A DNA stretch of 64,000 nt from Proteromonas lacertae (taxonomy: Eukaryota), in contig NGBS01000297.1 of NCBI GenBank assembly GCA_002245135.1, positions 1 to 64,000 on the forward strand, read 5' to 3'. The notes below the pieces were generated by a model that saw nothing but the letters and a program-made list of their open reading frames with translations, made no database searches and was not told where the DNA came from. Positions 9,074-54,169 of this stretch are shown here, one piece after another. How positions within the stretch are numbered: the first letter of the stretch is position 1; each line of letters starts with the position of its first letter. Both the position numbers and the translations under genes were made by a program.

Positions 9074-10586
9074 TTATTCGTCTTTCTTGGATGGTTCGAA
9101 TGCAACATCTTGAGCCATTAAAGGAACAGCTAAATCTAGTCTTGGATGTGATGTTTTAAGATCGTCTAGTATTAAAAGGAATAAAATAATATATATATAC
9201 TAACAGTAATTCCTTTACCGTTATTCATTTTATTCATTTCTTCAATGACAAATTTAGTAGCATAAGTTGCTGCTAATATATCTTGGGTACTTCCAATTTC
9301 AGAGATAGTATGCATATTTCTAATTGGATAGCCAATACTAGTAACAGCGATATCTTTACTAGCTAACACACCAGCCATAGCATCAGTACCAGTGTCACCT
9401 CCAGCTCTATCAATTTGAATTGGAATATCATTTTCTTTAGCAATTTTTTTAAACTATAAAATATATATGAAGTAATATATACTAAAGTGTTTAAATAAGG
9501 ATGACAAGGTTGCTCCTTCGGAGATAGTAAATCCATTTCCCATCTTTAAAGGAGGTAAATGACGACCACCTAAATCAGGAGCAGCTTCATAATCATGATT
9601 CACTTACAAAACAGTTAAAGAAAATAATATAAATAAAAAATGTTAAGTAAAAAAAAATGGATATATCAGTTGCTAGAATCACATCTGGGTTTAATTCACC
9701 TGCAATTACTCTGCTTCCAAATCTTCCAATCTCTTCATATGGTACACAAGCAAATAAACAACGAATATTCTTAATTGCTTCAGTATTAGTGGAAAACAGT
9801 GCAACCAACTAATCAAATAACAATAAAATCAATAATATATACTTTAGCAGCCATAAAGCATCCTAAGCCATTATCTAAGTAAGCACCACTGAAAGTATTT
9901 GGAGCAAATGCTGGTTTGATGGGTCTATCAAAAATTATTGGATCACCCGGTTTAAGTCCAACTTTTTCTAAAAACTTCTTACTTTCTTTCTCATTCATAC
10001 CCAATTCAATGTAGATTTGTTTCTTTGTAATACCTCTTTCTCCTGATATTACTGAAGGTTCTGCGAAATGAATTGCACCTAATGCTTCTACTGTTGCACC
10101 TGTTATTACTCTATAAGATCCTAGTTTTTCAGTATCTTCTGTAAATATCTTTACTGGATTTCCTATTAATGTTGCTGGTAACATTGAGTCAGTACTTACC
10201 CATATTTTACCATCATTACCTATTTGTTGTACTTGCATTCTTATTTTATCAGCATGTCCAACAACCATAACAGTAAACATGTCAGTTTTATTTGGATTGG
10301 TATCTAGAACAATACCTGCATTACCTTTGAATGTGTGAATAGCCCAATCATTTTTCATGATTGATTTAAAAAATGGTTCAATAACTCCAAATGTCATACC
10401 ACCCTCCATTCCAACTGGACTATTTTAGATTATTTGATAAACTAAATACCTTGGAGCTGCTAAAATTTGTCTCATCAAATCAAAATCACCAGCTGACATT
10501 GGTTGCTTCCATGGTTTAACTCCATTAGCACTAGAAAATGCTCTAAATGAAAATAGTTTGCTCAATTTCGTAGAAGCTCTTAACAT
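9074..10586 (-). CDS. M42-family aminopeptidase with N-terminal mitochondrial-type presequence
   Basis: Spliced MLRASTKLSKLFSFRAFSS..LAAPSPVGME..GHADKI..AYLDNGLG..EEIGRFGS..ATDVNHD..GTDA..PIRNMHT; four GT-AG introns plus one AT-AA intron; one apparent +1 error near 9507. Confidence 0.85.
9604..9664 (-). other. U12-like AT-AA intron, 61 nt
   Basis: GAT|ATATCCATTT...TTCTTTAACTGTTTTGTAA|GTG restores ATD-VNHD. Confidence 0.8.
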
Positions 10587-10662
10587 TTTGACTTACTATA
10601 ATTATATTCGTTTCACAATTTTGAATCTAGATTTAATTCTTGTTTTTTTCTCATCCTAAGAA

Positions 10663-11253
10663 ATGATTGGTAAATTGGTTGGTGCTTTCGCTGTAGGTGT
10701 TGCAGGAACTGGAGCTGTAGCTGCTTGGTATGTTAATGTATGTGTTTTATTCAAATTTATATAAATATAGAGATCTGAAAATCAAGTAGTAAGAAAATAC
10801 ATTGAAAAGAAAGAAAAGGAAATGACTGAAACAGCTGCTCCAGCAGTTTTAGCAGATCTCGAAAAAAAGAGAAAAGAATTGAGAGAAAAAGACATGCAAG
10901 TACAACAATTGAACTTATTAATATCTGGAGAACAATTGGTAAGAGAAGAAGAGAAAAATAGACTTCTTGCTTTAAGAAATGAAGATTTGAAGAAAATGTC
11001 TAAAATGGAGAAGCAATTTATGGAAGAATTAGAAAAACAAAAACAATTATATACCAATGATATTAATACAAAAGAAAGACTATTATCAACTGAAAAGACA
11101 AAACATAATGAAGAATTAAAAGAAATTCGTGAAAAGAGGATGAAGGATTTACAAAACTTCTCAAGTTCTTGTGCTAAATTCTGTATGAATATGGAACGTA
11201 CATTAAACGGTGCTCCAGAAAAAGAAACTACAGAAAAGAAAGTTTCAGTATAA
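10663..11253 (+). CDS. Hypothetical coiled-coil protein with N-terminal hydrophobic segment
   Basis: MIGKLVGAFAVGVAGTGAVAAWYVN, one GT-AG intron, then joins ORF 10822-11253. Confidence 0.7.
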
Positions 11254-11331
11254 CTTATTAGTGTTTTTGACTATTATATTGTTTTTGTTAATGAAGTGGA
11301 ATAAACAAAACATAATACGAAAAAAAAAAAA

Positions 11332-11693
11332 CTATTCTGTTTTATCTTTATTTGATTTATCACTTACAGATTGTGATTGTGGTTGATTTTCTTTCATTGC
11401 ATCATTTAACAGTTTCACAGTACTATGTTAATTATATTGTACTTAAATATACTAATTGGCAGACACTAATAAACCAGTACTTAAAAACAATGTAATAAAG
11501 AGATGTACATTTGAATATCCAAGTATAACCAATGAAAATAAAATAAATATTAATGCAATCAATGATATGTTTAAGGATAGAATCAGTTTATTAGAGACTA
11601 AACAATTAAATAACTTATTTATATTATACCACCTGGTGCTAACATATCTTTTACAAACTTCACAAGTGCAGATTCCTGTTCTACTTCTGGCAT
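11332..11693 (-). CDS. PKR1: Pkr1-like V-ATPase assembly factor (small two-TM ER protein)
   Basis: Spliced over two introns: MPEVEQESALVKFVKDMLAPGVSNKLILSLNISLIALIFILFSLVILGYSNVHLFITLFLSTGLLVSANY; absent from the ORF track. Confidence 0.6.
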
Positions 11694-11762
11694 TTTGATA
11701 AAAAAGAAATATCTATTCAAGCCAAGCTCTTATCACATTTTTTAAGTTTTCAGGTCTTAAAG

Positions 11763-13527
<1,765 letters not shown>

Positions 13528-13614
13528 CTAATATATAAGATTAGATTTTTTTATTCAAATGTTTATAATTTTGTTAATCACCACTCACACAAGAATGTAT
13601 TACATAATTATAGT

Positions 13615-14010
13615 TTATAAATACGGACATAAAGAAGCTAAACTAGGTTTTGAAGCTATTAATTCAAATCTTATTCTTTTTTTATCATAAACTGAAATAA
13701 GAGTTATTAACCCCATAAAAGTAATATAAAATTTATTCTCTATTCTCAATATACACATATTACTTTCAGAATAGTATTTTAGAACATCAAAAGTGAGTAA
13801 TTTCATTCCTTCATCTCCATATCCAGTTTTTATAAATGACAACTACAGTAAATTAGAATTCAACATACAATAATCATTTTAATGCTTTTATCGTCTAATT
13901 TCTTCATTTTTTGATCACAATGACTAATAACATTATATACTATAGTATTAATACATCCTGAATAGCATAAATGAATAATTACAAGCAATGTCCTTCTTAA
14001 TATCGCTCAT
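13615..14010 (-). CDS. RNase P/MRP subunit, Rpp14/Pop5 family
   Basis: Two introns; GYGDEGMKLLTFDVLKY..CILRI..LITLISVYDKKRIRFELIASKPSLASL fits the Rpp14 pattern. Confidence 0.6.
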
Positions 14011-14071
14011 AGTCCAAAAATGTACATTAGGTTTGATTCTAAGTTTGAGAATAAAAAGAAGTTTTACGATT

Positions 14072-14539: not shown

Positions 14540-14663
14540 AGTGTATGCATAGAAATGTATATTATTTATTAAACTATATGATGTATATTTCGAATTAAGA
14601 ATATGTATTTGTGTTTTAGATATGAAAATAACATAAATTGAAAGATAATTAAATTAATCGAGT

Positions 14664-17600
14664 TTACTTTTTATATAATTTAGAGAAAAACGAATTCTTA
14701 TTTTCCAACAACTTGTGTGGATTATCATACTCGACTATTTCACCTTTATCCAATACTAACACTAAATCACTTTTTAAACTGTTTGATAAATGATTTATAT
14801 TAAATAAAAGAAACAATAGTACTTCAACAAAACAAAAAAAAAGATATGCGAAACTCTTACTAGTGTACTATTTGTAAAATAATTATCTAAAATATTCTCT
14901 ATTAAATCACTTGTATCTTTATCTATTGAAGATAAAGCTTCATCCATAAAAATGATAGAATATTTATTCAATAACAAATGACTAATTCTCAACAACTCTT
15001 TTTCCCCCATACTTAAATTCAGACTCTCATTTTGATTTAATTCCTCATTTATATTATCATTCTTAATCAATTTCTCTAAACCAACAACTTTCAAAACATT
15101 CATTATCTCTTTATCAGAAAATTCATTTCTAGGATCAATATTATATCTGATTGTATTATTCTCGTCAATCAATAATCCTTCTTGTGGAATAATACCAATA
15201 CTATTTCTATAACTTCTATTATTCAATACTCCAATATTATAATTACCAATATAAATCTCTCCTTCATAATGAATTAGATTTAATAAACACAATAATAACG
15301 TTGTTTTACCTGATCCAGTCCTACCACAGATTGTAATATGTTGCCCTTGTTTTATTGATAAATTTAGATTATATAACACTATTGGAGTATCAATACGATA
15401 TTTTACTGTTAAATGAGAGATGACAATATCACCACTAATTGATATTTTGGATGGAACAGAAGTGAATGATATTGAATTCATTTTCTCATCATTCTCTATT
15501 GCTTCATACTCTTTTATTCTTTCTAATGACACTAATTCTCTTTCCGTGTTTGATAACGAACTTACAAAACTCTATTCATTGATTATTACCTAAAAAAATA
15601 TACTGAAAATGTGTTGATTAATGGAAGTGAATAAGATAAACTATAGAAATATATTAATGAATAAATTGGATAAAATATACCATAAACCAATCAATCCAGC
15701 ACTCATAGCATCATTTGCTATAAAAAGAATAACGATAATAAAAAATACAACTAATATTTTGACCATACAATACTAAAATAACTGCAATAATCATAAATCC
15801 AATATATTGAACATATAAACTAAACCACTGAGCAGAACTCAAAACACTATAAACAGTACATTGATTTCTATCAATCAAATGTAAAGATTTATCTAAATAG
15901 AATGGAATTTTATGGAATATTCTAATAATAACTGATCCAGATAAACTCTCAATAAAATGTGAATATAATGGAGATCTTGTTACAGTATCAAGCCTTCTCA
16001 AATCCCTACAAACTGTTCTATACTTTCTTTGTATACCTAAATATCCAATAATTACTAGTAGTAATGGCAAACTTAATCTAGTATTTGATATTATTATTAT
16101 TGAAATAGTTCCAATCACAACATACAATTGCTTTATTAGAATATTAAATTGAAATGGTAATTCATCATCTACTGACCAAATATCTTGATTTATTCTATTC
16201 ACGATTCTACCTAATGGATTTTGATCAAAGAATAGTAATGGTTTTACTATCAGCTTCTTCAATAAATCATTATGTATGTATTCAGCACATCTTATACCAC
16301 CATATGCAAATGAAAAAGAACGAATGAATGAAGCAATTAAATTGATGATTAAGAAATACACATAATATCTCATATAATATGAACTATTTGAAATATCGTT
16401 TGTCCATCGAGATAGCCAAAAATCAGCTAAATTGGTTGAAAACTATAATAGAATATTATATAAAAAATAAATCTATACTTGCGAAATAGTTAATGAAAGA
16501 AATACTATCATCAATATCAGATAACTCATATTCTTAAAGTAATAGAAATAAACAGACGATTTGATTTTACCTTCTTCTGTTTGTTCATCAAATATCAACT
16601 GTCCACTTGCTTCTCCTCCACTTACTACATTGTTATTACTCTCTTTGATCTCTTCAATTTTAGATATTAACTCTTTCATTATTTCATTTGATTTTCCATC
16701 TTTTATTATCTTCCCATCTTCTAATACAATAATTCTGTCAAATCTCTTAGCAAATTCTAAATTATGAGTGACAAGAATAACTGATTTATCTTTCAAATAC
16801 CCATCCTTTTTGTTAAATAAAGCTTCGAATATTTCTTCACTTACAACAGAATCCAATGAAGCAAAAACATCATCTAATAAATACAATTCTGCATTATGAT
16901 AGATTGTCCTTGCTAAACACAATCTTTGTCTCTGTCCTCCACTTAGATTAATTCCATTATATCCAATTTCAGTCATATCTTTAGCAGGAAATGAATCAAT
17001 ATCTTTTAACATTGCACAGGCTTTTATTACTTCAGAGTATTTTGTTACAACAAAATTAGAGTTGAATGTGATTATATTCTGAATGGTATCATTCGGAATC
17101 CAAGGAATTTGACTGCAATAAGATAGATTATCAGTTTTATAGCATTTAACATTCTCATTCTCATTCAAATTTACACATTCCAATTCATTTAATAATGATA
17201 ATAACAACTGAGTTTTACCTGATCCAGTTTTACCAATAACAGCAATTTTTTCTTTCTCTTTCATTAAAAAACTAACATCATGAAGTAATTTCAAATCTCT
17301 ATTTGAAACTGGAGATAAATAACAATGTTTATATTCAACAATTACATGTTTATGATCTTTCTGATTTGTTACAGATGGTGGGATATATTCTAATACTGGT
17401 CTATTTAATTCCGTAGTAAATAAGAAATCCTGTATTCTTTTACCTGATACTAAAGCTTCTAACATTCCATTCAAAATCCAAGGAAATGCATTCATTGGAT
17501 AAATCAGAATATTCAACAATGTAATAGTAGTAAATGCTCTTGAAGCGTTAATCTCTTCATTCAATTTATAAGCTGTGAATAAAGTACCGAAAATAACTAA

Positions 17601-19100
17601 AAATGGAGTACTTCCCCAAAAGAAAACACAAAATGCATCTAAATATTTCCTATACTTCAAATATCTAATTTCATTATTCCTATATTTTTTTATATTTTTA
17701 ATATAAATATCTTCATAACACATTGCTCTTATTACTCTTATGTAATTCAATAATGAAGTATACCATTTCACTCTGTTATCTTTATTCTCCATCATTAACC
17801 TCGTATATCTTGTTATATACTTTGCAATATAGAAATTAATTGGAATAATACATAACAACATTATTAATGGAGTTAAAAATGCAATTCCTACAGTATTATA
17901 GAGTAAATATAATGTTAAAACAACTTGGACTGGAACACTCCAGAATTCGTGAAATATACTACAAGCATCTGATAATTTCTGTGAATCAATTGACATTAAG
18001 TTGGTAATTTTTCCATCAACAATCCTTATCTTAGATAATAAAGCAGTATGATAAATTGAGCTAATCAATCCAGTTCTAAATCTTAAAGAAATCTTTCCAA
18101 TTATGAATGTATAATGAGGTGTTAAGTTAGCAGTTATTATCAAACAAATAATCAATATTCCACTGTAAATAACAAACCATTTCAAAGTATATTCTTTTTC
18201 TACTAAATCCACTATTTGCTTCAATAATATTGGTGGTGCTAAAGCTAATAAATCAATAGATAATTTCACTATTCCTAACCAATAATATTGCTTACCTAAG
18301 AAGTGATTAAATATATGAAACAATGGAATAGAACTGTTACTATTCTTTTCTCTTTGTTTTGATAGTAATTCATAAAATTCATTTGATAACTTTTCTGTAT
18401 TTTCTGTATATGGAAGTGGTCTTAAATCTTTCCATTTGATTGTACGATGTTCTGAAAGTGTTATTAAAGGTGATAACCATGAGAAAAAGAATTTATTAAT
18501 GAATGTGATCTTTGTGTAATCTATTATTTGTGTGAAGGTTTTGTATTGATAATCGATGAATAACAATCTGTATAATATATACGCTGTACATAAATGAAAT
18601 ATTATAAAATAAATGATAGATTGCCATGAGTTCATGTACGAAGTAATATTGTAGGAATAATATGAAAATACTAATTCAAGTGAGAACGGAATGATATAAA
18701 TTCTATATTATTATAATAAATCACTTATATATAGCTCATACAATGATATTGTTATAAAAGTAAGGTGTATATATATAAATATCATTAAATAACAAAACCA
18801 TAATATAATATTTATTGAATGTAGTATCTATGACAATAAATATTTTAAAATAAACATACTAAATAACCTGTATTGTTAGGATCGAGGATTGAGTAAAGCG
18901 ATAGAATAATCGCAATACAAATTGTTGCAGGTATTATAATTTGAATTACATGATATTTTGGAGGTTGTATCTATAAATAATAGTTCACATAATACACTAT
19001 CTGCTAATCTTTTAGAATTTTTCAGAGAAAAGCATATTTTTAAGTAACATATACACTGAATGAACTTAATAGTAAGAAAAATAGCATAAAACTGCAACAT
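14664..19100 (-). CDS. ABC transporter, ABCC (MRP7/ABCC10-like)
   Basis: Two TMD-NBD halves: GKTGSGKT, LSGGQRQR, LLDD; GRTGSGKT, LSMGEKE, FMDE; last exon joined via an AT-AA intron. Confidence 0.9.
14795..14847 (-). other. U12-like AT-AA intron, 53 nt
   Basis: TCG C|ATATCTTTT...TTTCTTTTATTTAATATAA|AT CAT restores VSHHLSNSLKSDLVLVLDKGEIVEYD. Confidence 0.75.
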
Positions 19101-19300: not shown

Positions 19301-20360
19301 TTAATTTGATATGTTCTTCCCCATTATATCTTTACATACTTTCCCAACATCAGTACCATACAAGAAAACTGCAACAATAACCAAAATTGTGCCAATAGTA
19401 AATACCAAAGTAACATGAAAATCAAACAAATAAATTGACAAAATACATGACAATACAATAGACACAGAGGTTGCAAATCCTTTCAATATATTATCTGCAT
19501 ATTTAATAACCACAGCCACTACTAAACCACCAAAAGCTTGGATTGAAATACATAACCATACCCAGTTGTTATAACCTAATAAAAAACCTTTTTCTGAGAC
19601 GATAGCCCTTTCTCTATACCAAATACCCATAAAGCAGAAGATTAAACTAAATACAGACAATTGAATATTCCTAATCCAAATTGATGATTTTGCTCCTTTT
19701 AATAACTTTTCGAAATATACACCAGCAAATCCTGATGTTAAAGATGATATAATAACACATGTCATACCCCACCAGTATATACCACCAGCTGGATCAGGAG
19801 CATTTCCTTTAGGTTGTACTAAAGCAACGCCACCTGTCAATATTACTAGACTTATCCACTGATAACCTGTTAAATGCTTACTTAATACTAACACTGAGAA
19901 AAGAGCTGTAGTTAAGATTTTGAGTTGATAAGTGACTTGATATGTGGCTGCATCTAAATTACTTAGAGCAATGTACAATAAATTATTCTGTAATGTGTAT
20001 AATCCTGATGGAATGATTAACAATAAAGTATCACGAGGTTGATCTATAATATCCTCTTTCACTCTCTATTTTTGTTATAAAATGCAATAATAATGAATAG
20101 TAAATACTTTTAGCATTCCTCCAATACTATTTTCTTGATATGTTATCATCACAATACAAGTTATAAGTTTAAATAACTCACTAAACACAACAGCTGTTGA
20201 TGTTAAATATCTACACAATATAAACCATGACAATACTTATCACCAGGAATAGTTCTGGTATAACGCATTACAAGAACCTATTTGCGATAATAATAGAAAA
20301 ATATACTTGCGCTGTGTTCTGTATAACCAATATGATCAAACTTAAATACTTGATATTCAT
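19301..20360 (-). CDS. Nucleotide-sugar transporter, SLC35A family
   Basis: [69 protein letters not shown]; three introns. Confidence 0.92.
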
Positions 20361-20424
20361 GTTAGTGAAGCAAAATAAAAATTCGAAATGGAATAAAAAA
20401 TATCCGTTCTATGAATATTTAAAA

Positions 20425-21538
20425 ATGAAAAAGAAGGTTATATTTCTGGTACTTATTTCAATTTTATCATCAATAAAGGTATAAAATGCAACTAATGCTA
20501 TTTTTAATAGACAATTTTGTTTAATTATACTCAAACAAGACCTGGTGAGCAGTATATCAATAATAACGATATTGAATAGATTCATATCATCCACAGCAGT
20601 GTTATTGACAGAAATATTAAAAGTGGTTGTTTCTTGTTTTGCGATTTTTGTGATGGAGTGGAAAAATAAAGGATTTGTACATGTATATACAACAAAATAT
20701 CATATATTAGTGTATCAAAAAAGAAATAATAGGCAAACCTTATGACACATTAGAATTACTTCTGCCTTCTTCTTTCTACACTCTTCAACAGTTTTTGTTG
20801 TATATTAATATGCTTATATTCGTAATAGATATATAGCTCTAAGAAATATTGATGCAGCCACTTACCAAATAACATTTCAACTCAAAATCCTAATAACAGC
20901 AGTTTTTTCTGTCATTTTAATGAAAAAGAAATTATCCTTTACTCAATGGTTTAGTTTATTATTATTAATGTGTGGAGTAGCATTAGTTCAACCATACAGT
21001 ATATATATAAATAAATATCTTTACATAAATAGAAGTAAATAGAATTCCAGAAGGAAATTATTTGATTGGAATTACTTGTGTAATTATTTGTTCATTAACA
21101 TCAGGATTTGCAGGAGTATATTGTGAAAAAATAATGAAAAATTCCAATCATAATGTCTGGATTCATACGATACAAATGTCAATATGGAGTATATTACTGT
21201 CATTTATTGGAATGTCTTTTTATGATTTGATGATAATAAGTAAAAAAGGATTCTTCTTTGCTTATGATCATTTAGTGTGGCTTTGTATTTTAGTTCAGTT
21301 ATTGAATGGATTTATTGTGATATATGTTATTATTTATGCTGATAGAATATTGAAAGGTTTTGCTACTTCAATTTCTATAATAATCTCATCTGTCATCTCC
21401 ATGATATTATTTGATTTTAAATTCACATGGAATTTTCTCTTAGGCTCTATTATTGTTATTTTGTCAAGTTATATGTATGGAAGAGCTAAATTAGAAAAAG
21501 AAAAAGTAGATCAATTAGTTTTACCAAAACATGAATAA
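20425..21538 (+). CDS. Divergent SLC35A nucleotide-sugar transporter paralog
   Basis: [43 protein letters not shown]; five introns. Confidence 0.85.
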
Positions 21539-25128: not shown

Positions 25129-26026
25129 TTATCTGAACTTTACATCACCAGGTAATCCACCTAATGCACTTTTAAGAGCTTTAGGATCTGCCCATTGTGA
25201 TGCTAAATAATCATCTTCATCATCTTCTGTTAATTGTTTCATTTCTTCCTGTTTCTTATAATATAACGCCATCATTTGTTTTCTTTCTTCATCACTTACA
25301 GCTGGCTGTCTTTGTGGAGGTCCAGATCCTTTCTTTTGGATTTTTGCAATTATCATTGTTTTTTCATTTTTTCCAACTCTGTCACCCACTGTTTGGTTTC
25401 TCAGAAATTCTTTTCCTGCCCACCATAATGTGCATGTTTCTGGATCTAAATAACTTAAAGAAGCTGAAGTTCCTTCAATCTCTTCTTTTCCATCAAAAAT
25501 TTGTTTTACTGGATCATAATCTGGTATACCCATTGGATAAGCTATTGTCACAGCACCTCTTAGGTTATCCATTACATTTTTTATTCCTTCTTCAGTTAAT
25601 GCAACTTTATTTAATGCCTGATTTCTTGATATATATGCTTTTGCTTCTTCGCATGTTTTATTTATTACTTTTGCTAAATCTGGACCACATCCGTTACCAG
25701 TTCTTTTCCCAAGGGGATCTTCTTCGTAAAATTCATTCTTTTCGATTGGATCTTCAGAATACTATTTATAATAAATGAACAATAGAAACTATACTTTATC
25801 AAGACCTTGCTTTTCTGGAAGTTTAGCAGGTCCATGCTTCCCTAGCCGTTCGCATTCAACAACTAATCTTTCTATTTGATGTCTACTATTCTCTATATTA
25901 GCCTATTTCGAATAATATTACTTTAAAATATACCAAACTTCTTATAACAGCATCATTACTTGCTTTGCATGTAGTTTCAAAAATAAATTGGTCAGTATCG
26001 TCGAATTTAATGTGAATAACAACCAT
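25129..26026 (-). CDS. CFAP298: CFAP298 (C21orf59) family protein
   Basis: MVVIHIK..QFIFET..KHGP..DPLGKRTGN..LRGAVTIAYPMGIPDYDPV..LWWAGKEF..VGKNEKT..YYKKQEE. Confidence 0.85.
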
Positions 26027-29590: not shown

Positions 29591-30307
29591 TCACTTTTTA
29601 TTCTTGTTTTTATTCATATTAGTTGCAGCTGTCTTTCCTCCAGCGTTTTTAGGTTTAAAAGTATATTTATTCATTGGTAGTTCAGGTCCAACATCTTTCA
29701 AACCCAATGTCTTTATTACAAATGCATATCTATTCATATCTGTTCTTCTTAAATAACACATTAATCTTCTTCTTTTGCTTGTCATTCCCTTTAAGCCTCT
29801 AAGTGTATTAAAATCTTTTGGATGAACTTTTAAATGTTCTGTGAGATGTTTAATCTTTGCTGTGAATAATGCAACTATTTTTAAATAATATATATATGTC
29901 TATACTCTGTACTTCTGGTGATCCAGTATCACTATCAAATCTTTTCACCTTTTGAACAAGATCTTCCACTTCATATTTCATTTTCTCATAGTTTGATAGG
30001 CACTGTCCACCTAACGCTCTTTGAAGTTCAGGCGATAAAGAATTATATTGATTTAATGTGAGTCCAAAACGCATTCGTGGAATTTCTGTAGCAGTACTTT
30101 GAATGGGTATATTTTCAGCAGAAGGTGCAGCTACTGCACTTAAAGATCTTGATGGTGTTTGTGAAGCTATAGATTGAGTAGAAAACCAGAATTGTGGTAT
30201 TACTGTTGCATTTGATTTGACTCCCACTTTAGATAGAGCTAGTCCATAATTGTAAAACTAATAAAAAATAATTTGAATTAAAATACCTTAGGCAAAGTCC
30301 TAAACAT
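29591..30307 (-). CDS. MRPS15: Mitochondrial ribosomal protein S15 (uS15m)
   Basis: Presequence MFRTLPK|; DTGSPEVQ|..HLKVHPKD..RGL..KRRRLMCYLRRTD. Confidence 0.85.
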
Positions 30308-34255: not shown

Positions 34256-34281
34256 AAAGCAGAGTTACGTTTGTATTAAAA

Positions 34282-36492: not shown

Positions 36493-36554
36493 AATATAAT
36501 TTTATATTAGTAATTTTTGTTTGTCTTTACATATAAATCTCTTAAATTATATGT

Positions 36555-36570
36555 GGTGCTAAAAAGCACC
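36555..36570 (-). promoter_or_regulatory. Histone mRNA 3' stem-loop
   Basis: AAAACCA-GGTGCT-TTTT-AGCACC-ACAT; 6-bp stem, 4-nt loop, 36 nt after the H2B stop. Confidence 0.9.
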
Positions 36571-36606
36571 TGGTTTTAAACTTCTTTAAAAGTAAATTCA
36601 TTTAAT

Positions 36607-37661: not shown

Positions 37662-40600
37662 ATGAGAGTTATAGCTCTTATTTTGCTCTTAGCTATATGT
37701 ATTTCTTATTATCTATATTGTATACAGGTTATGCTCAAGGACCAAGGTGTACTTACAACAATGGTAATACAGATTTCTCATTCGATGTAAATCAAGATGT
37801 AGAAATAATTCCTTCCTGTTTACCAACACCTACAAATGCAGCTTCTGATCCAGCTTTACCAACTGGTCTGTATTTAGGAAGTGATGGTTCAATTAAAGGT
37901 GCTCCAACATCTGCATTACCAAAAACAACATACACCATCACTTTTACAGGTCCTACAGGTGATACATCCACAACAACAATCTCAATGTCAGTAACTGCTC
38001 CAATTCAATCTTGTACTTATGGTGTTACTGACAGAATTCAAATCCCAATCAACACTTATACAATTATTCAAGGTCCAAAGTGTGATCCACAAGCTACTTC
38101 ATTCGAAAAGCAAACAAACAACATTCCAGCAGGAATGACTTTAGATCCAGTGACTGGTGCAATTAGTGGAACTCCAACAACAACTACAAGAGCTATTACA
38201 ATCGTTGTAACAGCTAAAAACACTGCTGGTTCATTACCAGTATCTGTGAATGTAATTGTAGTTGATAATACTCAATTACCACCTGGTATAATGGCTAGAA
38301 TTTCTCCAAATAAATATGCTGATCCAGATAAAGAAGGTGCAAAATGTCCATCAACTTATGATCCTTACTTATATGATTTTGAAAATGGAAATATGAATCC
38401 AATCACCACTTATTATTTCACAGAATTAAATCACCACTTATTATTTCACAGAATTAAATCATAATTGTGATGGTGATTGTCCTGCTGCTTTTCCTCAACA
38501 GAAATATTTTGTAAGATTTGATGGTATTATTCATGCTCCAGTTACAGGTACTTACTCATTTAGAATTTATGTAGATGATTGTGTTTGGTTGTTCTTAGAT
38601 AATAATTATACTCACCCAGTTGCTGCAATTCCAGCTACTAAAACTGTTGTTATTAGATTTGAAATGACTGAGGGAGATCATGCATTTACTGCATTACTAT
38701 ATCAACTTGATGGTCCTACTCAACTACGTATAGAATGGAAGATATTTTCAGCTGGTATAATGTATTATGAAAATTTAGGTGGTGAATTTATATCTGGTCC
38801 ACAACAACCAGTTCAATTCTTAACTTATCCATCCAGTGATTATATTATTAGAATTCATACAGGTGTAAATATCCAACCAAGTTATGAAGGAAGTCCAACT
38901 GAATGGTTTATTGAACCAGCATTACCAACTGGTTTAACATTTTCTAATGGTAGAATTACAGGTAATCCATCAGTAGAAAAAACATCTACAAAATATAAGA
39001 TTACTGCCAAGAATGGTGTTTCAACAACAACAGCTGATATTTATCTTACAGTTGTAACTTTATCAACAGAAATCTTAAAACCAGGTATTATGGCAAGTTA
39101 TTATTCGTGTAGAAGTACTTCTTATGGTAATGTTGATAGTTGTGAAGGTCAAACATTAATAGCAAAACATGTAGTTGCTGCAATTGATAGAGAAAAATCA
39201 AGTAAAACATTTGATGGTTTAATTTCCAAATATGGAACAAATTTGAAAGTGGTTTATGAAGGTTATATCAATTTCCCAAATTCAGGAACTTATATTTATG
39301 GAACTGATGTGTTAGATGCTGGTAGAGTCAGATTTACAGCTGAAAATTCTCAAGATGTTAGCGAAGTAACAGCTCAAAAAACATGTGGAGAAAAGGAATT
39401 ACAAACTTGTGTTCTTGAAACAAGATCAAGTCAAAAAACATTAGGAACAAGTGAAGGTCCAAGAGCAATTGAATATACCTATTTGAAATCAAATATGAAT
39501 CCATTGAAACAAGTGCAATTATTCTGGTCAGGAGGTCCAAATATGATGGAAAAGAATTATATTCCATCTGATTATTATTATTATTTACCATCTTCATCCT
39601 TATCTTATGGAACTCCAGTAGCTATTTACATGTCTCAAATTCAACTTGATGCAAATAGACCAATTATTTTTATGTCAAACAAAATATATCAATCATTCAG
39701 TATTTATCCAACATTGCCAGCTGGTTTAAGATGTGATTCAAGAACTGGTGTAATCTCAGGAACACCCACAGTTGATTCATCTTACAGAACAAAATATACA
39801 GTAACAGCCACTTCAACTGATAGAACAAGTGTATTAACAGCGACAGTAGAAATTGAAGTAGTAAAATATGTAGCTCCAATTCCAATTGATTATACAGGTA
39901 GAACAATAAATGGAAAAATAGGAGTAGCAATCGAAACTGTTGCGCCAGTAACAGCTCCAACAGGTGTGAATTATTATGTAGAAGGTGGATTACCACTTGG
40001 TTTAAGTGTAGATTCAGCCACAGGTGCAATAAGTGGTGTTCCATTAGAATCAGCTTCAGGAACCATAACAATCTTTGGTCAATCTGATGGTGGTGTTACT
40101 CAAGCATTAGTTCCAATTCAAATTGATTCATGTGAAACAGGTAAATCATTTGTGAGAATGGTATTTACTGGTGGTGCAAATCTTGGAAATGATCCCAAAC
40201 AAGTAATGAAATTAAAAACACTTGATGGAAATGTTGTAATGGAAAGAAGGGATAGTGCATTTGGTACATATGAAATATACCAATGTGTTGATGATAGTCT
40301 TTATCAAGTGACATTAGGTCCAAATGTATATTCAGTTCCAGGTGAATATTGGGTTTATGGTGAAGGAACAAGTATTTACAGATATGGTAAATATATATTG
40401 AATGATAAAGTGAAAGGAAATGATGCTCCAGAAAATGTTGTAGTTCAATTTTCAGTTACTATTGGTTCTTCTTCATCACCTCAAATCGAATATCCAGATG
40501 GTGATGGTGGTGTTTATACTATTCAAAGAGGTATTGGTGCTGTTATATCACCAATTATTAGTTATGCAGCTGATTACTGCTCAATTAATCCAGTTAATCT

Positions 40601-43933: not shown

Positions 43934-45365
43934 TTAAGCTAAATGGCTTAATAATGTGCTATTTTCTGGCAAATATTCAGGATGATCTGTTATAATCTGT
44001 TTAATATCTGTAAACTTTAATTTCACCAAACATGAAGAACTTGCAGCTATATTTGACGCAATTGCTATAATCTTTTTCACAATATCAATTTTCATTGAAG
44101 GAATTAATGCTATAATTGTTTTAATGAATGGTTTATTAGCATAAATATCATAATTATCATACAACTTCAATGACAATTCAATATAATCAATCAACAACAG
44201 TTGAATATGTAGTTTTACATTTGGAAATAATTCAATCACTTCATTGGTTATGTTATTCAACACATCAGTATGTTCTATTTTTTCACCTTTTCTATCTTCC
44301 ACAACTAAGCTAATCATCGAATTAAGACACTCAATTGTATTTACTAAAACTTCATTTTTTGGTGATTTCAATAATTCTATTATATACTCTTTAAATTCTT
44401 CATTATCTTTAATCATTTTCAAATATTCTTCATTCTTACTCTTTAATAACATCGGAACTAATTGAATAGCTGATAGTAATAACATATTAGATGATTTCTT
44501 TGGATTTAATAAACTAATTAATAATAAAATGAACTTATTATCAGATATATTCATTAAATCAACAATAAAGTCTCGATTTTCAGATAATATTTCATATAAC
44601 AATGTTAAATCAGTTATTAATACATCTTCTTTCTTTTGATCTGTTTGTGGTTTATTCTCATCATCAGTATTATTGATATTATTATTCATAATTGCTAGTA
44701 AAGTATTCGTATTAATTATAAAATTCTTTACTATAAATGGTAAAAATGATTTTATCAAAGATCTTGGCATTTTATCAGATACATTACTTAATAACCATAA
44801 ACTATTGAATGATATTTCTTCATCATTACTTAATTTATCATTATTTATTACTTTTATTAAATTTTCAAACATTTTTGAATTGATAATAAATTCTATTGGT
44901 GGATTTTCATCTAATGTTAATAGAGATCCGATATTCCATATTGATTGTTCTACTACACGTTTATCATTATCTAAGAATAAGTTTATGAATAGCTCAATTT
45001 CTTTATTACTTATTATTTCAGTGTGTTAAATAAAATTAAGAAAAGTTGGTTGACAATAGAAGAAAGTAAAAAAGATATCTCAATAACACCTAGTGATATA
45101 CATTTTCCAAGTAGGTAAACACAATAATATTTCATATCAGCGTCAGAATCTGATAAGTGACTTACAAGAATTGGAAATATTCCATTTCCATTAATATCAT
45201 CAATTGGAATTGCTGTTTCATTTTTCTGAGATAGAAGCTTCAAAAATAAAAGACCTCTTTTGCAATTTTGAGGTTCTGGGTCTTTAACAAGCTTCATTGC
45301 TTGATCCATCTAACAATAAATCGAATGGTTAATACCTTTTCTTTAGTAAATACAAGGCCGTCCAT
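43934..45365 (-). CDS. ARM/HEAT-repeat protein (divergent importin-alpha-like)
   Basis: GIFPILVSHL, RVVEQSIWNIGSL, NSLWLLSNVS; one GT-AG and one AT-initiated intron. Confidence 0.65.
45026..45078 (-). other. U12-like AT-AA intron, 53 nt (an AT-AC end 3 nt further is also in frame)
   Basis: GAG|ATATCTTTTT...TTTTCTTAATTTTATTTAA|CAC joins two ORFs in frame. Confidence 0.7.
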
Positions 45366-45482: not shown

Positions 45483-47994
45483 TTAATATGTTCCAACCTT
45501 AAACTCAGGTCTAAATGGAGAGGCATGTTCTTTACCAGCAGTTAAGAAATCAACTGTCTTCTTTCTATACAGTACAGATGATTGATTCATATTCTTAGGA
45601 ACAGATGTTTTTCTTCTTCTAGCTACAGTTGACTTTGACAATTTCGATTCATTTTCATTCTCAGTCTTAGTGACAGTATCTTTAACAGTCTTTGTAGTAG
45701 TTGTTTCTTCTTCATCTGTAATAGTAATAGTCTCTCTCATAGACTTCTTATACTTCCTAGATCTCAATCTATTTGGAGCTTCATAATCTTCCAACTCTTT
45801 CATGTTATTCTCATTATTCTCTTTCACATCTTCAATAATAACTTTCTTCTTCTTCTCCTTCTTTGGTTTGACTTTTCTTCTAGTCTCTACAGGTTCAGGA
45901 ATAACCACAACTTTAAGTTCTTCTGGTAATACAATTGTAGTAGGATGTTTTGGTCGTTTTCTTTCAATATCATAATTCGTAATTTGATCTAAAACAGGAC
46001 ATAATTCACTGTATTGACGGTGTTTAGTTAAGAATGGATGTTCCAATACTTGCTCAATCATTATTCTTTCATTAATATCGACGGTTAAACACTTTTTGAT
46101 GAAATCTTTTGCTTCATCACTTACATAAATCCATTGTTTTCCTCTCCAATCAAATTTACCTTTTATTAAATCGTTATAATTTCTAAATGGAGTTTTACCA
46201 CAGAATAATGTATAAGTAACAACGCCAATACTCCAAATATCAGCTGTTCTATTGATATTCTTCTTTTTTAATAACACCTCTGGAGCTAAACAATCGCAAT
46301 ACAAATAAGGATGTTCGATGTTTTCATAAACTGATCTTAATGTACCAATATCACTGATTTGAACTGTTGGATCTTTTGTCATATAATTTTCTATTAAAAC
46401 ATTTGATGGTTTTAAATTATAGAAGTTAGTGACATGATCATGTAGATATTGTATTGCTTCACAGATATGTTCAACTATATATTTGATTTTATATTCACTA
46501 TAATATTCTTTAGTAGCTAAACAATCAATACAATCACCTTCATGTAATAATGGATAAACAATGTAATAGAAATCACGATCTTCAACAAATTCAATCACTT
46601 TAGTTATATAAGGATGATCAAATTTCTGTTGTAACATAATTCTTTCTTTTAAACTTTCAGGATATCTTATCTTTGTTTTTGGTATTAATTTAATAGCAAC
46701 TTCTTCGTTTGTTTTTATATTTGTTCCACTGTATACTTCACCAATATGACCTTTTCCTAATCTTTTACCAAATAAATATCTTTGTCTCATATCAACATAT
46801 CCTAACTCTTTCTTAGTAAATTCATTTTTATGAATCACTAATTTAGTTACATTGATAAATGATTGCCATTTCTTTCTTGTTACATTATATATCTTAAATT
46901 GATTCAAATTATCAGATACTGTATCAATATTCTGCGGTTGTACTATAAAATCATGACTTAAACATTTCTCAGGTGTCATTCTTTCTACTGGATCAGTCTC
47001 TAATAAACGATTAACAAACTCTTTCGCATTAGTTGAAAGGGTGTCCCAATATTTTGGTGGAAATGAAAATTCCCCATTTACTATTTTTCTGAATATTCCA
47101 TATGGATTACCGTCTAATGTATTAAATGGAGTTGTACCACTGAGTAATATATAACTAATAATACCTAAACTCCACATATCAATCTGAGTATCATAGATGT
47201 TATGATCTACATTGTTGTTGTTGTCTTTATTATTGTGACTGTTTGTACTAGTGATAGAGGATGAATTAGATGTTATTATTTCTGGTGCTAAGTATTCAGT
47301 ATTACCACATCAGTGTGGATATATTATTACGATTGGAAACTAATGAGATAGAATATCCATAATCACTGATTTTTATTACACTATCGCTAGTATAGTCTTT
47401 TAGTAATAGATTCTCTGGTTTAATGTCACCATGAATAATACCTCGTTGATGACAGTAATTAAGTGCATTGAGGATGGTTTTGAGTATTTTTCTTACATCT
47501 TCTTGACTGAAGAAGTTTTTATTGCTGATTCTATCGAATAGTTCGCCTCCTTCCATTAGTTCATTTAACGATATAAATTCTCTTTTTATCTTCAAAGTAT
47601 TCATAACATTTGACTATATTTGGATGATCAATCTATATTAATTAATTAACATAATAATAATAATAGATATACAGCAATTGCCAAATTTAAGTTACTTCTA
47701 AATGTGTCTAAATCATCAACTGTTCTTTTGTCTATTACTTTAACAGCGTATTTCTCACCAGTAGATTTAGCAACTGCTTCAATAACATTGGCTCGAGGTC
47801 CTTTACCAATAATCTTCGTTGGTAGGTATTTAGCCATAAATTCATTATCTGTTTTGTATCTACAAAAATTAGAATTATTTAAATGTATACTCTACTAAAG
47901 AAGTTGATCTTGCTGTTCCTTGAGATCTATTTGAGTAAAGAATAATATCATACGAAGCATCTGACTCTTCTTCTCTAGAATTGTTTGATCCCAT
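45483..47994 (-). CDS. Tandem CAMK-type kinase, second domain degenerate; two apparent frameshifts
   Basis: MGSNNS; domain 1 AVK/HGDIKPEN/DYG/APE/DMWSLG; domain 2 GKGHIG/AIK/FYNLKPSN/DIG/APE. Confidence 0.85.
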
Positions 47995-48644: not shown

Positions 48645-48948
48645 TATTTATCCATTTTTTATTATATAAATCTGTTTTTATGATTTTGATGTTTGAATAT
48701 CATAAATAATATTCCTCTTAAAGCAATATTTAAATCAAATTTAACATAGTAATAATTTTTATGCTGTATATATTCACTAATATAATGAATTAAAACAAAA
48801 CAAACATATTTTGATCAAGCTCAAACTTTTGTTGAGGCTTAAATAGAATTAAGAATCTATTTAACTTACAGCCGATAACTGAATTTTGATAATAAAGGAA
48901 TCATTTCATAACTAGTGGTAACATTCTAGTCATTTTGAATATAACAAA

Positions 48949-49661
48949 ATGGTCAAGTTAGGACAATTAAGAAATTGTATAAATATAAATCTACAATATA
49001 TGTGCTTTTATCTATATATTTAACTTATAAAATATTCAATCAATTAACAATTTGGCTTAATCTAACTATATAAATTCCAAAATAATTATTCTAATAAATT
49101 TAAATAGATCGTCGTACTTACAAGACACCACGTCGTCCATACGAAAAAGAAAGATTAGATCAAGAACTTAGACTCTGTGGTGAATATGGTTTAAGATGTA
49201 AAAGAGAAATTTGGAGAGTTCAACTTGTATTAGCTAAAATCAGAAAGGTAGCAAGAGAACTTTTAACTCTTGAAGAAAATGATACCAGAAGATTATTCGA
49301 AGGTTCAACTTTAATCAGAAGATTGACACGTCTCGGTTTATTAGCTGATGATGAAAGAAAGTTGGATTATGTTTTGCAATTATCAACCCAAAGATTATTA
49401 GACAGAAGATTACAAACTAAAGTATTCAGATCTGGTTTAGCTAAATCCATCCATCATGCTCGTGTTTTAATCAGACAAAGACACATCGCTGTAGGAAAGA
49501 ATATGGTTGATATTCCATCATTTATGGTGAAATTAGATTCAGAAAAACACATTAACTTCCAACCAAAATCACCATTCGGTTCATCTGGTAAACATGGTCG
49601 TGTATATGTACACAACATGAAAACAAAAGCCAACCAAAAGAAAGAAGGAGGTGATGAATAA
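48949..49661 (+). CDS. RPS9: 40S ribosomal protein S9 (uS4)
   Basis: [60 protein letters not shown]; intron 48977-49107. Confidence 0.97.
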
Positions 49662-49826
49662 GTAACTCGATAAATAAAAAATAGTGAAAGAGTAATGTTA
49701 CCACATACATTTTGAATTTTTTGTTATTTTGGTGATATAATAAATAGAATAAAACAAAAAAACAAAGAATAATGTGAAATAAGTTTGATTACTGTTTGTT
49801 ATCGTTTTATTGTTTTGATTTTGAAA

Positions 49827-50666
49827 ATGTCTTTACCAAGCGATTATCCAATAGAGGGTGATGGAATATCTGAAAATTTGTTTTATTTTTTATGGAGTAA
49901 AGATGATATGGAAAAGTATATATTTTTCTTTTATAAATTAGAGGACCAATGCTTCATATTCCTGAAACTGTTATATTCAGAATGAAACAAGTATCATTAT
50001 TATTGTAATAATACCATTAGCCAATTGCTTGGTACTTCACTAGTGTCAATGGACAAATCAAGCGAAAAAATAGGAATAATTTAACTGTTACAAAAATAGA
50101 AGAAATATTTTGTAGAAAGAAACTATCATCTGACATAGTAGCATGTTTCATTGAAACAAATCCAGAACAGACAGGTGGAACTGCTGTATTCAATTATTAT
50201 AATATGGACACATTTTGTATATATTTAATTTTGTAATAATATTGTAGTGAAATGGTTGCAATCAGATGATAAGAAAGATGGAATACTTCAACAGTTTATA
50301 GAACCATGTGGTAATTATAATAGTATTGTCTATCACCTATATATTAATTAGATGTAATAAAATGCCAGTGGTCTCCCAAAATGTGTTTAATTGAAAGAAG
50401 ACAAGCTCTCTATCCTTTAACTGATAATAGATACAATATATATGAACGTACAGTAACTTATGAAGGTAATCCACATAACAGTAAACTATTACCAGTAAAA
50501 GGATCGTTATTACCTTCATTATTACAACAAATATGTAATAATATAGTCAATCATATAACTGAAACTTCTTATAATAAATATAACATATCTACTTTTACAG
50601 CTCATTTTAAAGTTGATTCTAAAGATCGATTATGGTTTTTATATTCAACATCTATTAATCTAACTG

Positions 50667-50704
<38 letters not shown>

Positions 50705-52589
50705 AATGAATAGTAATAATTATTTAGGAAGTAAAACTAGAAATATTCAATCAGCTACAACCTTTGGATCTATTTATTCACCCAAGCCAAGTTCATCAAT
50801 GAAGAAAACCAAATCAACACAACAATTATTCGCTCAAGATCAGAGTCAATCGCAATTGAGATTAAATAGTCAAGAATCTCAACAACAATCACAATTACAG
50901 AGAATTCCTCCACAAAAATCAGCAGTTTTAACAATACCAAAATCAGTCAATTTAAAAGGTAGTAATCCATATTATAAAGCTACTAATTTAGAAAGATCTT
51001 ATCAATGTCCAACTTGTGGTGATTTTGTAGAAGAATCATGTGTTCATCCAGTGTTATATAAATTAATAATAAAATATCATGGTGTATTAACTAAACAAAT
51101 GAATAAAACATATGGTAAAGTTGAATATCCAATCAGTGATGAGATTAAAGAGACTGTTGGTAAAATAGGATTGTTTGAAATCCCAAGAGATAAAGATGAT
51201 CAACCCCCCGAAAATTTTGATAAAATCCCACCCCCAATTAGATTTATCCATCCAAAATTATCTTATAATAATTATGTAAAATATTGTAAAGATCCTCTTT
51301 TCTTATTTAAATCTGTAGGTATTTGTGAAGAATGTTTTCTGAAATATGCTGAATATAGTGATGGTTCAATGCCAAAACCAGAACCTTCTCCATCTATATA
51401 TTCTGATTCACAACTAAGTAAAGAAGAATTAAAAGCTATTAGAGAAAGAAGATTAGAATCATTAAAGGATAAATCATTATGGTCACCTTTATTTAGTCAA
51501 GAAACTAATTCCAACACTCAAACTAAAAGTAAATATTCTGGTCCAACTACTGAATTTGGTAAAATGGCTACTAAAAGACCAACTATTCCACCATCTAACA
51601 CTGATTATATTACCAATACTCACTATCAAAGTAGTAGTAATTTAAACACTGCTAATTCTAATAATAGATATAATACAGCATCTACAGCAGGCAGTTCATC
51701 TTATTATGAACCTAGTACAGCTGGTACTTATTCATCCACAGCTAATGGTGGTAAAAGATCTTGTTCATTACCTTCAATACCATCTGCCACACCAGGAACA
51801 GCTAATAATAATAATAATAATAATAAGAGTAAATATGTATATAAAGGTGGAAGAGTTGATTCACCGATGGTATTTGGCGAAGATGAAGATGAGAGTGAAA
51901 GTGATGAAGAAAAACAGTTTGAACAGTATTATAGTACTTACTTAGAACCTCCACGACAAAAACAAGAGAAGTTCTACAGAGATTTATATGCCAATCCAAA
52001 CTTAAGAGAAGGTCATCCACTTACAGCAATTGCTACAGAAGAAGTAATAAGAGCACAAATGACGGATGGTGTATTAGATCCTTATCAGAAACCAGGTGAG
52101 CATTTGTCACCCACTGAATATGGTGAAAGAAGAACGGAAATGCTGAGACAAAAATTACCCAAACCATTATTAGCACCACAAGTATTGAATGATTCTGAAG
52201 AAAAGATAATTAGGAAGAAAGAACAAAGAAGAGAGAGATTGGAAGGTAAGACTAGTAGTACTAAGAAGAAGGGTAATACTAAAAGATCAAGATCTCCCAT
52301 TGAAGAAGATAAATATTTGAATGTTCAACATTATTTGGAAATGCCTAATACTCCAGAACCAAGACCGTATTATTATTATTGATTATTGTATATAATTTAT
52401 AGAAAGAAAAATAAGAAGTCTACAACAAGACAACAACAACAAGAACAAGATACTCGAGATAGTGGTGATGATGGAGATTATGAAAGTGGTGAGAATTATG
52501 AGCAATACAATGAACCATATGATGAGCGATATGATGAAGAGTATGATGAAAGACCAGAGTCTGGAGTTGTTAATTCTGATTTGGAGTAG
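49827..52589 (+). CDS. Hypothetical protein with globular N-terminus, CPTC motif and low-complexity C-terminus
   Basis: Spliced IPETVIF..AWYFTS..GILQQFIEP..WSPKMCLIERR..ERTVTYEG; +1 error near 50668. Confidence 0.65.
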
Positions 52590-52797
52590 TTTATGTTATT
52601 TCTATCTAATCATATATATTTTTTATAAATATTGAAAATTGTTTTTGGTGATTATTCACTCCATAAACACTCTTTTTTGAAAATGTGGAATTTCTCTGTA
52701 CAACTAGCACATAATGCACTGTAAATGATATGAACAACCTAAAAACCAATAGAAACAATATAAATAATAAGGCAATTAAAAAAATATCTGAGAATAC

Positions 52798-52917
52798 TTA
52801 ATCTTTGGCATCTTTTTCGTTTGACGTTACATAAAAGTACGCTACGATAAGCAAAAATATGGCGACTGATAATAACCTTACAAAATTCATTAAATCGACG
52901 TCTAGATCCTCTTTCAT
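52798..52917 (-). CDS. OST4: Oligosaccharyltransferase subunit OST4 (39 aa)
   Basis: MKEDLDVDLMNFVRLLSVAIFLLIVAYFYVTSNEKDAKD fits the OST4 pattern; too short for the ORF track. Confidence 0.7.
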   Translation of the reverse strand: MKEDLDVDLMNFVRLLSVAIFLLIVAYFYVTSNEKDAKD

Positions 52918-53018
52918 CTTGAAAATTAAAAAATGGATTAATGTGTATTACAACAAATACATTGTATTTTCAAAATAGATTTGATTTTCTTTATCTTTTG
53001 AGTTTTTATCTATCAGCA

Positions 53019-54169
53019 ATGAATCCATTGGAACAATTAAGAAGAAAACATCAAGTTGAAGAAGAAGTACCTACTTTTGCTGGTCAAGCTGTTATGATAG
53101 AGTATTTTTTGTTGTTTTTTTATCATATACAGTTCATCTTGTCATGATTACAAAGCAACACCATATACAGATTGTTTTGATGGTAAAAGAGAGATAAAAA
53201 TACCATCCTCCAAAAATATATCCTTTTCTTTTCATTTATACAACTTAAAAGTGTTATTTTTAATTCACATTTAAACATTTAATGTATATTTTGGAGGTAA
53301 AAGTGGTCCAGCCTTATTTTTACTACATGGAGCTGGTTATACAGGTGCTAGCTATGCAGAATTTGTTGTATACAACACAACTATGTTATATCAAATAGAA
53401 AGAAGCCAAAAAATACAGTCGTTGTTTCGCCATAGACTTCAGAGGACATGGTTTAACTAAAACAGACAATCAACTCGATTTATCAGCAGAAACTTTAACA
53501 AACGATACAGTCAAAATAATCCAATTCCTCTGTACTGAATTACCCAATGATACACCCTCCATTATAATAGGTCATAGTATGGGTGGAGCAATAGCGACAA
53601 GAGCAGCAGCAACAGGTGAAATACCAATGTTAAAAGGATTAGTAGTGATTGATGTAGTAGAAGGAACAGCAATACCAGCATTAGTACATATGAATACAAT
53701 ATTAGCGAGTAAACCAAAGAGTTTTTCAAGTATAGAAGAAGCTATAAAATGGGATATTCAAAGTCAAACATGTAGAAATCCATTATCTGCAAAAGTGTCA
53801 ATGCCAACTCAAATTGTTAAAGATAGTAAAACTAATCAATATGTATGGATTACACCATTAGAAAAGAGTGATAAATACTGGAAGGATTGGTATATTGGTT
53901 TAAGTGATTTATTTTTGACTGTTCCTGCTGCAAAGTTATTGATTTTAGCTGGTAGTGATCGATTAGATAAACCATTAACAATAGGACAAATGCAAGGTAA
54001 ATATCAATTATTAGTAATGCAAGGAGTTGGACATTGTATTCAAGAAGATGCTCCAGTTGAATTATCTAAGACAATATTTAGATATTTAAGCAGAAATGGC
54101 TTGACTGAGAATCAAGATGATGAATTAGCTAAAAAGTTGGAAAGAGCTAGACAAATGATTCCACATTAA
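53019..54169 (+). CDS. PPME1: Protein phosphatase methylesterase 1
   Basis: LLHGAG, DFRGHG, GHSMGGAIA, IDVVEGTA, DRLDKPLTIGQMQGKYQ, GHCIQED. Confidence 0.95.
53218..53274 (+). other. U12-like AT-AA intron, 57 nt
   Basis: AAT|ATATCCTTTT...TTTTTAATTCACATTTAA|ACA; perfect U12 donor; restores KN-TFNVY. Confidence 0.85.

Follow-up and report, generated by a model that had tools for sequence, protein, structure and literature searches.

We analyzed a window of 64,000 nucleotides (64 kb; Proteromonas lacertae contig NGBS01000297.1, positions 1 to 64,000) in which four protein-coding genes are interrupted by segments that start like introns of the minor, U12-dependent class and end in AA. These segments are located at positions 9604–9664, 14795–14847, 45026–45078 and 53218–53274; the coordinates, the lengths of 53–61 nt, the ATATCC or ATATCT starts and the TAA ends given in the original prediction are all exact in the sequence. 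Three of the four can, in this sequence, end in AA only. We consider it likely that they are real U12-like introns with AT-AA ends, that all four are A-class introns of the U12 type, and that this lineage ends most such introns in AA and not in AC; the chances that AT-AA dominates genome-wide are about even. The analysis shows the position of the segments, their termini, the restoration of the reading frame on their removal, their difference from the major introns and, in relatives, the conservation of the donor A in two introns and of the last A in one.

All four segments were found on the sense strand of a recognizable gene, at a frame break or a stop, and they are convincing because of this placement. 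Their exact removal mends the frame in the genes for an M42 metallopeptidase, for PME-1 (protein phosphatase methylesterase) and for an ABCC/MRP-type transporter, and the frame of an ARM-repeat gene is mended by removal of either 53 or 56 nt. The window is gene-dense with a GC content of 27%, and the segment interiors are 79–92% A+T; three of the four segments are in phase 0. When the 170 [AG]TATC[CT] sites on both strands were ordered by the T content of their next 10 bases, the four segments occupied ranks 1–4. The motif ATATCY followed by at least eight T in the next 10 nt is by itself without significance, occurring four times compared with about two in block shuffles, with 16 of 100 shuffles reaching four. 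Once the branch-like element and a YAA end were included, three occurrences were observed against 0.07–0.09 in shuffled sequence (a maximum of 1 in 2 × 100 shuffles).

A purpose-written codon-model gene finder, run without any coordinates and permitted to use GT/GC-AG as well as ATATCY...AN introns, proposed 155 introns and chose all four AT donors; 150 of its introns were GT/GC-AG. For comparison, a clean set of 116 GTAT...YAG introns was drawn from the 142 GT-AG predictions beyond position 6900. These major introns all start with GTAT, end in TAG in 112 cases, measure 24–50 nt (median 32 nt) and are 88% A+T, with almost no signal besides GTAT and TAG and, in many of them, ATT microsatellites. 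The four segments, which do not have this major U2-type form (GTAT...TAG, 24–50 nt, no branch consensus), share a [AG]TATCCTT-like donor distinct from the major one. C at position +5 was present in all four as opposed to 2 of the 116 major introns (Fisher P 2e-6), and a length of at least 50 nt in all four as opposed to 4 of 116 (Fisher P 9e-6), which bears out the earlier statement that the segments are longer than the introns around them. A TCCTTAAC-like branch element, expected in U12-type introns about 10–15 nt before the acceptor, was present in three of the four with its A 10–11 nt from the end and weakly in the ABCC intron; YYTTAA was found 7–13 nt from the end in three of the four segments and in 3 of the 116 major introns (Fisher P 3e-4), so that the element originally described in all four is clear in three and weaker in ABCC. 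The prediction that the window holds no clear GTATCC..AG intron also stood: the gene finder proposed no intron starting with GTATCC or GTATCT, and the sole GTATC starts among the 142 GT-AG predictions were two GTATCA. The assertion that no usable GT-AG pair exists is correct in function, though not to the letter, since in-frame G[TC]-AG pairs do occur near every site. The three such readings that were scored came out 16–35 bits worse than AT-AA, and in the ABCC and ARM genes use of the nearest GT-AG pairs would either delete the H-loop His or lead into a stop. Readings in which a segment is left in place likewise scored below AT-AA or met a stop.

The M42 metallopeptidase gene (9074–10586, minus strand; assigned by Pfam PF05343, homologues and the gene model) contains four GT-AG introns in addition to the AT-AA intron at 9604–9664 (61 nt, phase 0, ATATCC...GTAA), which separates the D and V codons of a D-V-x-H-D motif. 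All open in-frame junctions within −6 to +6 of the donor and −15 to +15 of the acceptor, 77 options, were scored against a profile of 120 homologues, most of them unnamed. The AT-AA junction ranked first with 613.3 bits, and none of the 77 options had GT/GC-AG or AT-AC ends. Splicing at AT-AA regains the D-V-x-H-D motif, of which D, V, H and D are invariant in 120/120 homologues. A branch-like TTCTTTAAC at 9614–9622 (minus strand), whose putative branch A precedes the intron end by 11 nt, matches 8 of 9 positions of the U12 consensus. The protein itself is bacterial-like, showing 58–65% identity to its matches, and all of the named ones are bacterial (Halomonadaceae, Bradymonas, Mariniblastus). 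Its extended N-terminus resembles a mitochondrial presequence, and the gene is a candidate for transfer from bacteria followed by gain of a minor intron, with eukaryotic homologues possible among the 120.

In the PME-1 gene (53019–54169, plus strand; identified by homologue search and gene model), the intron at 53218–53274 (57 nt, phase 0, ATATCC...TTAA) is the one segment with a full ATATCCTT donor, and its last triplet would be an in-frame stop if retained. The AT-AA junction was joint top of 77 with 431.4 bits (119 homologues), the tie being a one-base slide that yields an identical protein, and the splice regains I-P-S-S-K-N-T-F-N-V-Y, to be compared with I-P-D-S-Q-N-T-F-H-V-Y of P0002. 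The sole AT-AC option among the 77 starts with ATCCTT and lacks the donor consensus; an AT-AC end requires a surplus base upstream and scores 427.0 bits, 4.4 below AT-AA. The branch-like TTTTTAAT (53257–53264, plus strand) places its A 11 nt before the intron end. No close PME-1 relatives were found, the metagenome contigs yielding 71 distant loci and the genome and viral contigs none, and a crude check of 19 distinct upstream stretches from the distant loci revealed no matching minor intron. Five members of the PME-1 cluster start within the last exon and are uninformative on the junction; none is identical to the window. A C-terminal tail is common to nine named oomycete matches and one unnamed protein among the 119, and a quick tree did not separate the placement of the host.

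The intron of the ABCC transporter gene (gene at 14664–19100, minus strand; Pfam PF00664 and PF00005, with PDB ABCC matches for its relative P0247; the 5' end of the model is uncertain) lies at 14795–14847 (53 nt, phase 1, ATATCT...ATAA) and splits the His codon (C|AT) of the H-loop in the second nucleotide-binding domain. The spliced peptide S-H-H-L-S-N-S-L-K-S-D fits the H-loop spacing of ABCC2, A-H-R-L-H-T-I-M-D-S-D, and the boundary was placed by this spacing and by relatives. The relatives are Logan proteins called on contigs that were taken as unspliced DNA, some of them 7–15 kb long; the two contigs that read through the intron (those of P0247 and P0255) measure approximately 1.1–1.3 kb, and their DNA origin is assumed. 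A search with the window's own ABCC reading frame, continued through the intron, gave three clusters with 11 proteins, at 84–90% exon identity to the window. All 11 read V-S-H-I-[FL]-F, and H-I-[FL]-F therefore places an A at intron position +1, where G would encode Arg; in the P0246 cluster the reading H-I-L-F is compatible with the textbook ATATCCTT. Two of the 11, P0247 and P0255, run through a 54-nt intron into N-H-L-N-N-S-L-K-S-D, and in P0247 the 18-residue insertion falls precisely at the ABCC intron site. The Asn in both requires A as the last intron base, since the codon would read His with C, Asp with G and Tyr with T; the other nine hit a stop inside the intron and put no constraint on its end. 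A lineage with 85% protein identity to the window retains the last A in an intron whose interior has changed completely. There is no AC or AG within 13 nt of the intron end, and a miscall of the terminal A, which the original prediction had named as a danger, is excluded at this intron by the independent contigs of the relatives. The branch-like TTCTTTTAT in the window (14804–14812, minus strand; A 10 nt before the end) is weak; the peptide S-L-I of P0247 and P0255 would allow TCCTTAAT, with its A 9 nt from the intron end.

The remaining intron lies in an ARM-repeat, importin-alpha-like gene (43934–45365, minus strand; Pfam Arm, with weak PDB importin-alpha matches, best E 5.5e-7) at 45026–45078 (53 nt, phase 0, A-type, ATATCT...TTAA). 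An alternative end at 45023 would give a 56-nt AT-AC intron, likewise in frame, and this is, as had been predicted, the only one of the four where AT-AC is possible without a sequence error (CAC, +3); the M42, ABCC and PME-1 introns have no usable in-frame AC. The branch-like TTTCTTAAT (45035–45043, minus strand), a 7/9 match to the U12 consensus, has its A 10 nt before the AA end and 13 before the AC end. The donor pattern ATH-[TA][CG]N-TTY was found at the same codon in all six read-through relatives, which form clusters at 80% and 46% identity, bringing the read-through relatives that keep the donor constraints to 17/17 (11 ABCC and 6 ARM). The cluster at 80% stops at codon 18, which fits a TAA or TAG end and also the longer AC end, and F-L-I at codons 13–15 of the branch region is common to the window and to P0256/P0268.

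A number of observations weigh against the view that these are U12-type introns ending mostly in AA. The ARM intron may be AT-AC, as TAA (53 nt) and CAC (56 nt) are both in frame. The ABCC relatives fix the base at −1 and are compatible with an A at −2; in the same intron the weak TTCTTTTAT is a 6/9 match to the U12 consensus, and the full ATATCCTT is missing from three of the four donors. The gene finder took the AA end for M42 only, and for the other three it chose AT-AT, AT-AC and AT-AT ends 3–15 nt downstream; these AA ends were missed because a codon model cannot tell in-frame ends apart, and the AA ends other than that of M42 are placed by homology or analogy. For PME-1 and M42, the ends both depend on this one assembly, in which at least five single-base indels lie beyond 8.9 kb, approximately one per 10 kb. 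An Rfam scan of the window revealed no snRNA and minor-specific proteins are likewise not in the window, which carries no information on the rest of the genome, and no spliced full-length protein was present among the relative clusters examined. Finally, the sample consists of four introns in a window that was picked for the AT-AA feature.

This last point also supports the view that the segments are real minor introns in which AT-AA is only a tolerated minority, with 3–4 of 4 reflecting a small sample, the selection of the window and AT-rich drift in an AT-AC system. In favor of this view are also the doubt about 45026, the A+T-rich interiors, and the finding that the last base of mammalian minor introns switches between human and mouse (PMC1557818, Table 3). 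Published shares of AT-AA are low: 3 of 33 non-canonical human U12 introns, non-canonical ones making up 4.9% of the class (PMC1557818, Table 2), and, in plants, no more than about 3% of the minor introns that are conserved; approximately 4% of conserved minor introns are non-canonical, and in plants about 75% of those are AT-AA (PMC10639083). At a share of 3%, at least three of four being AT-AA has a probability of 1e-4, and even if all of the 23% of Blastocystis ST1 minor introns that are not AT-AC were AT-AA, P would be 0.04. No unambiguous AT-AC or GTATCC intron was found among approximately 146 predicted introns; under drift alone AT-AT should be just as frequent, but no T end occurs among the four; and the last ABCC base was kept as A in the 85%-identical lineage with its wholly changed interior. 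We regard a merely tolerated minority as unlikely, and 3–4 of 4 as a real skew relative to published sets, but the number of introns is tiny. The claim that AT-AA is the dominant subtype is thus borne out as far as 3–4 of 4 and unproven as a statement of dominance, the 95% interval being 19–99% (for 3/4) or 40–100% (for 4/4) in a selected window. An unusually high density of such introns was not established: 4 of about 146 (0.75–6.9%) exceeds the vertebrate 0.3% (P = 0.001) but is compatible with the approximately 1% of Blastocystis ST1 (P = 0.06), both values disregarding window selection.

It is improbable that the major spliceosome removes the segments as GTAT...TAG introns in which both terminal G have become A in a compensated fashion, the minor spliceosome being perhaps absent. 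The ends of the two classes do differ by G to A only, given the uniform GTAT starts and predominant TAG ends of the 116 major introns, and A-A termini splice weakly in mammalian tests (PMC8283771). The +5 C, the greater length and the branch-like element nevertheless set the four apart, the P0246 cluster permits the textbook ATATCCTT, and short ATAT...TAA introns did not survive inspection when allowed in the gene finder. In that relaxed run, which also allowed frameshifts, seven further AT-starting candidates appeared and all were rejected: those at 48996 and 49068 (48996–49103) lie inside one long GT-AG intron of RPS9, and those at 47292, 18767, 9454–9480, 3019 and 3340 are indel sites or belong to poor 5' gene models. 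A candidate fifth intron at 56664 (minus strand) is spanned by two ordinary GT-AG introns in the gene model. In the RPS9 gene (48949–49661, plus strand) a single GT-AG intron follows codon 10; at about 130 nt it is four times as long as usual, and it contains no Rfam match.

Assembly errors that make AT-AC or AT-AG introns look AT-AA are a still less credible source of the pattern. Single-base indels are many in the window, and one lost G would turn the M42 intron into AT-AG, as one surplus upstream A would turn that of PME-1 into AT-AC, at the cost of 4.4 bits. With about 5 indels in 55 kb, however, an error near one junction is unlikely and near three negligible; at about one per 10 kb the indels are too few to strike three junctions. 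At 14795–14847 the explanation is refuted by the missing AC or AG and by the last A in independent contigs. The breaks themselves are found at approximately 9490, 36855, 47302 and 47570 (minus strand) and 61720 (plus strand), in M42, histone H2B, a kinase (twice) and an LRR gene; mostly surplus bases, they are probable assembly errors. The surplus base near 9490 costs M42 an Asn that is invariant in 120/120 homologues, and dropping it gains 20 bits. Positions 1–8900 (minus strand) are taken up by a coiled-coil gene of great length that contains a tandem repeat of about 480 nt. Its frame breaks are numerous, with at least seven in 1–3800, and most are repaired by one extra A in an A run; the pattern resembles long-read sequence that was left unpolished more than it does programmed frameshifting. 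Hardly any weight remains for an origin of the segments as mobile introns of one introner family or for non-spliceosomal removal, as similar sizes and shared ends are offset by interiors no more alike than shuffles in 6/6 pairs (37–297 of 300 shuffles score as high), by alignments with only the donor and T-richness in common, and by old positions common to relatives at 46–85% protein identity.

If the segments are spliced as U12-type introns, U11 and then U6atac would pair with the ATATCY(T) donor and U12 with the TTYTTAA-like branch element, and the acceptor would be the first pyrimidine-A-N 9–11 nt past the branch A; the reported optimum for the branch-to-acceptor distance of U12 introns is 11–13 nt (PMC3584512). 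An out-of-frame AAG or AAC lies 1–2 nt past the TAA in three of the four introns and would be skipped, so that the simplest rule is to take the earliest pyrimidine-A-N located 9 nt or more beyond the branch. When the exons are ligated, the first intron base pairs with the last one, and the branch A with A(−2) (PMC11585973). Here A(−2) would likewise pair with the branch A, and A(−1) with A(+1), in a symmetric A-A pair replacing G-G or A-C. The A-A combination weakly supports splicing, and mutation data point to a geometry shared with G-G and A-C, while cryo-EM geometry reportedly excludes both A-C and A-A (PMC8283771, section 34); the minor spliceosome can use AT-AN ends productively (PMC1557818). 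The change from C to A was probably supplied by AT-biased mutation and A probably retained over T by selection: AT bias alone should give T as often, so that the four A ends and the A that a diverged relative conserves suggest, albeit from small numbers, that selection acts. The spliceosome may, as originally proposed, have altered its recognition of the 3' splice site, but no such change is strictly needed because A-A termini already splice weakly in mammalian tests (PMC8283771; PMC1557818). Somewhat more tentatively than an even chance would warrant, we suggest that an AT-rich stramenopile clade switched its minor introns almost wholly to AT-AA, with a spliceosome that prefers A-A over A-C and G-G, and that it is still gaining such introns, one of them in a bacterial-derived peptidase gene.

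If a clade-wide switch is true, introns ending in AA would escape standard annotation. Annotation pipelines discard AT-AA introns, and surveys that record how dense minor introns are, or where they were lost, may therefore undercount such lineages. The pairing of the first and last intron bases at exon ligation is disputed for ends other than G-G, and a lineage with A-A as its norm would be a natural test; A-A as the normal end would suggest that Prp8, ZRSR2, CENATAC or U6atac has changed to compensate. The AT-AA intron in the bacterial-like gene is a candidate gain in a class of introns where gain is held to be rare.

Other features of the window bear on its host. Pfam identified proteins of the He_PIG/PA14 type and a ribosomal protein, S15, of mitochondrial type; the S15 gene (29591–30307, minus strand) has an N-terminal extension, and an He_PIG/PA14 surface-type protein of about 1,750 residues has its frame broken by an exact tandem duplication of about 28 nt at approximately 38405–38460 (plus strand). 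A scan of viral contigs for He_PIG gave no match; He_PIG proteins are, we presume, associated with Blastocystis. Together with the 27% GC and the PME-1 tail, these proteins suggest a stramenopile near Blastocystis or Proteromonas, and the GC content of Proteromonas is 27.0% (PMC12129017, Table 1). The window also contains a CFAP298 homologue (25129–26026, minus strand), two divergently transcribed nucleotide-sugar transporter genes with 64 nt between them (19301–21538), and, just downstream of H2B at 36531–36575 (minus strand), a match to the histone 3' UTR stem-loop that stays below threshold (29 bits against a gathering score of 34); no tRNA was found in the window.

No organism with an AT-AA majority was found in the literature consulted, and supplementary per-species tables of termini could bear on novelty. 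The AT-AA U12 introns of animals and plants resemble those described here in the ATATCY donor, the U12-type branch element near the acceptor and the AA end, but they are rare there, in contrast to 3–4 of 4 in the window, where the introns are only 53–61 nt long. The human introns that depend on CENATAC (PMC8280824) belong to the same AT-AN class; human A-type introns are, however, a weaker and less efficiently spliced minority, whereas those of the window are apparently its only minor class. Blastocystis ST1, with 346 minor introns among about 35,000 that are described as AT-AC (PMC5608401), is likewise a stramenopile with tiny major introns and very short minor introns, mostly A-type with an excess of phase 0 (77% AT-AC, mean 42 nt, 49% phase 0; PMC10639083, section 24); it differs in that the main text of PMC5608401 does not mention AT-AA. 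With 27% GC, genomic stop codons and major introns of 24–50 nt, the window is not like Blastocystis ST1, ST3, ST4 or ST7, and the Blastocystis downstream element TGTTTGTT was not seen at the gene ends of the window. Physarum polycephalum, in which AT-AA accounts for 27% of 1,014 non-canonical U12 introns (about 270) compared with 1,830 annotated AT-AC introns and a G-type majority (bioRxiv 2020.10.12.336362), shares with the window relaxed termini, ATATC[CT]TTT donors, a fixed, short branch-to-acceptor distance of 9–12 nt and signs of minor-intron gain, but its branch element is TTTGA and its AT-AA introns are a minority.

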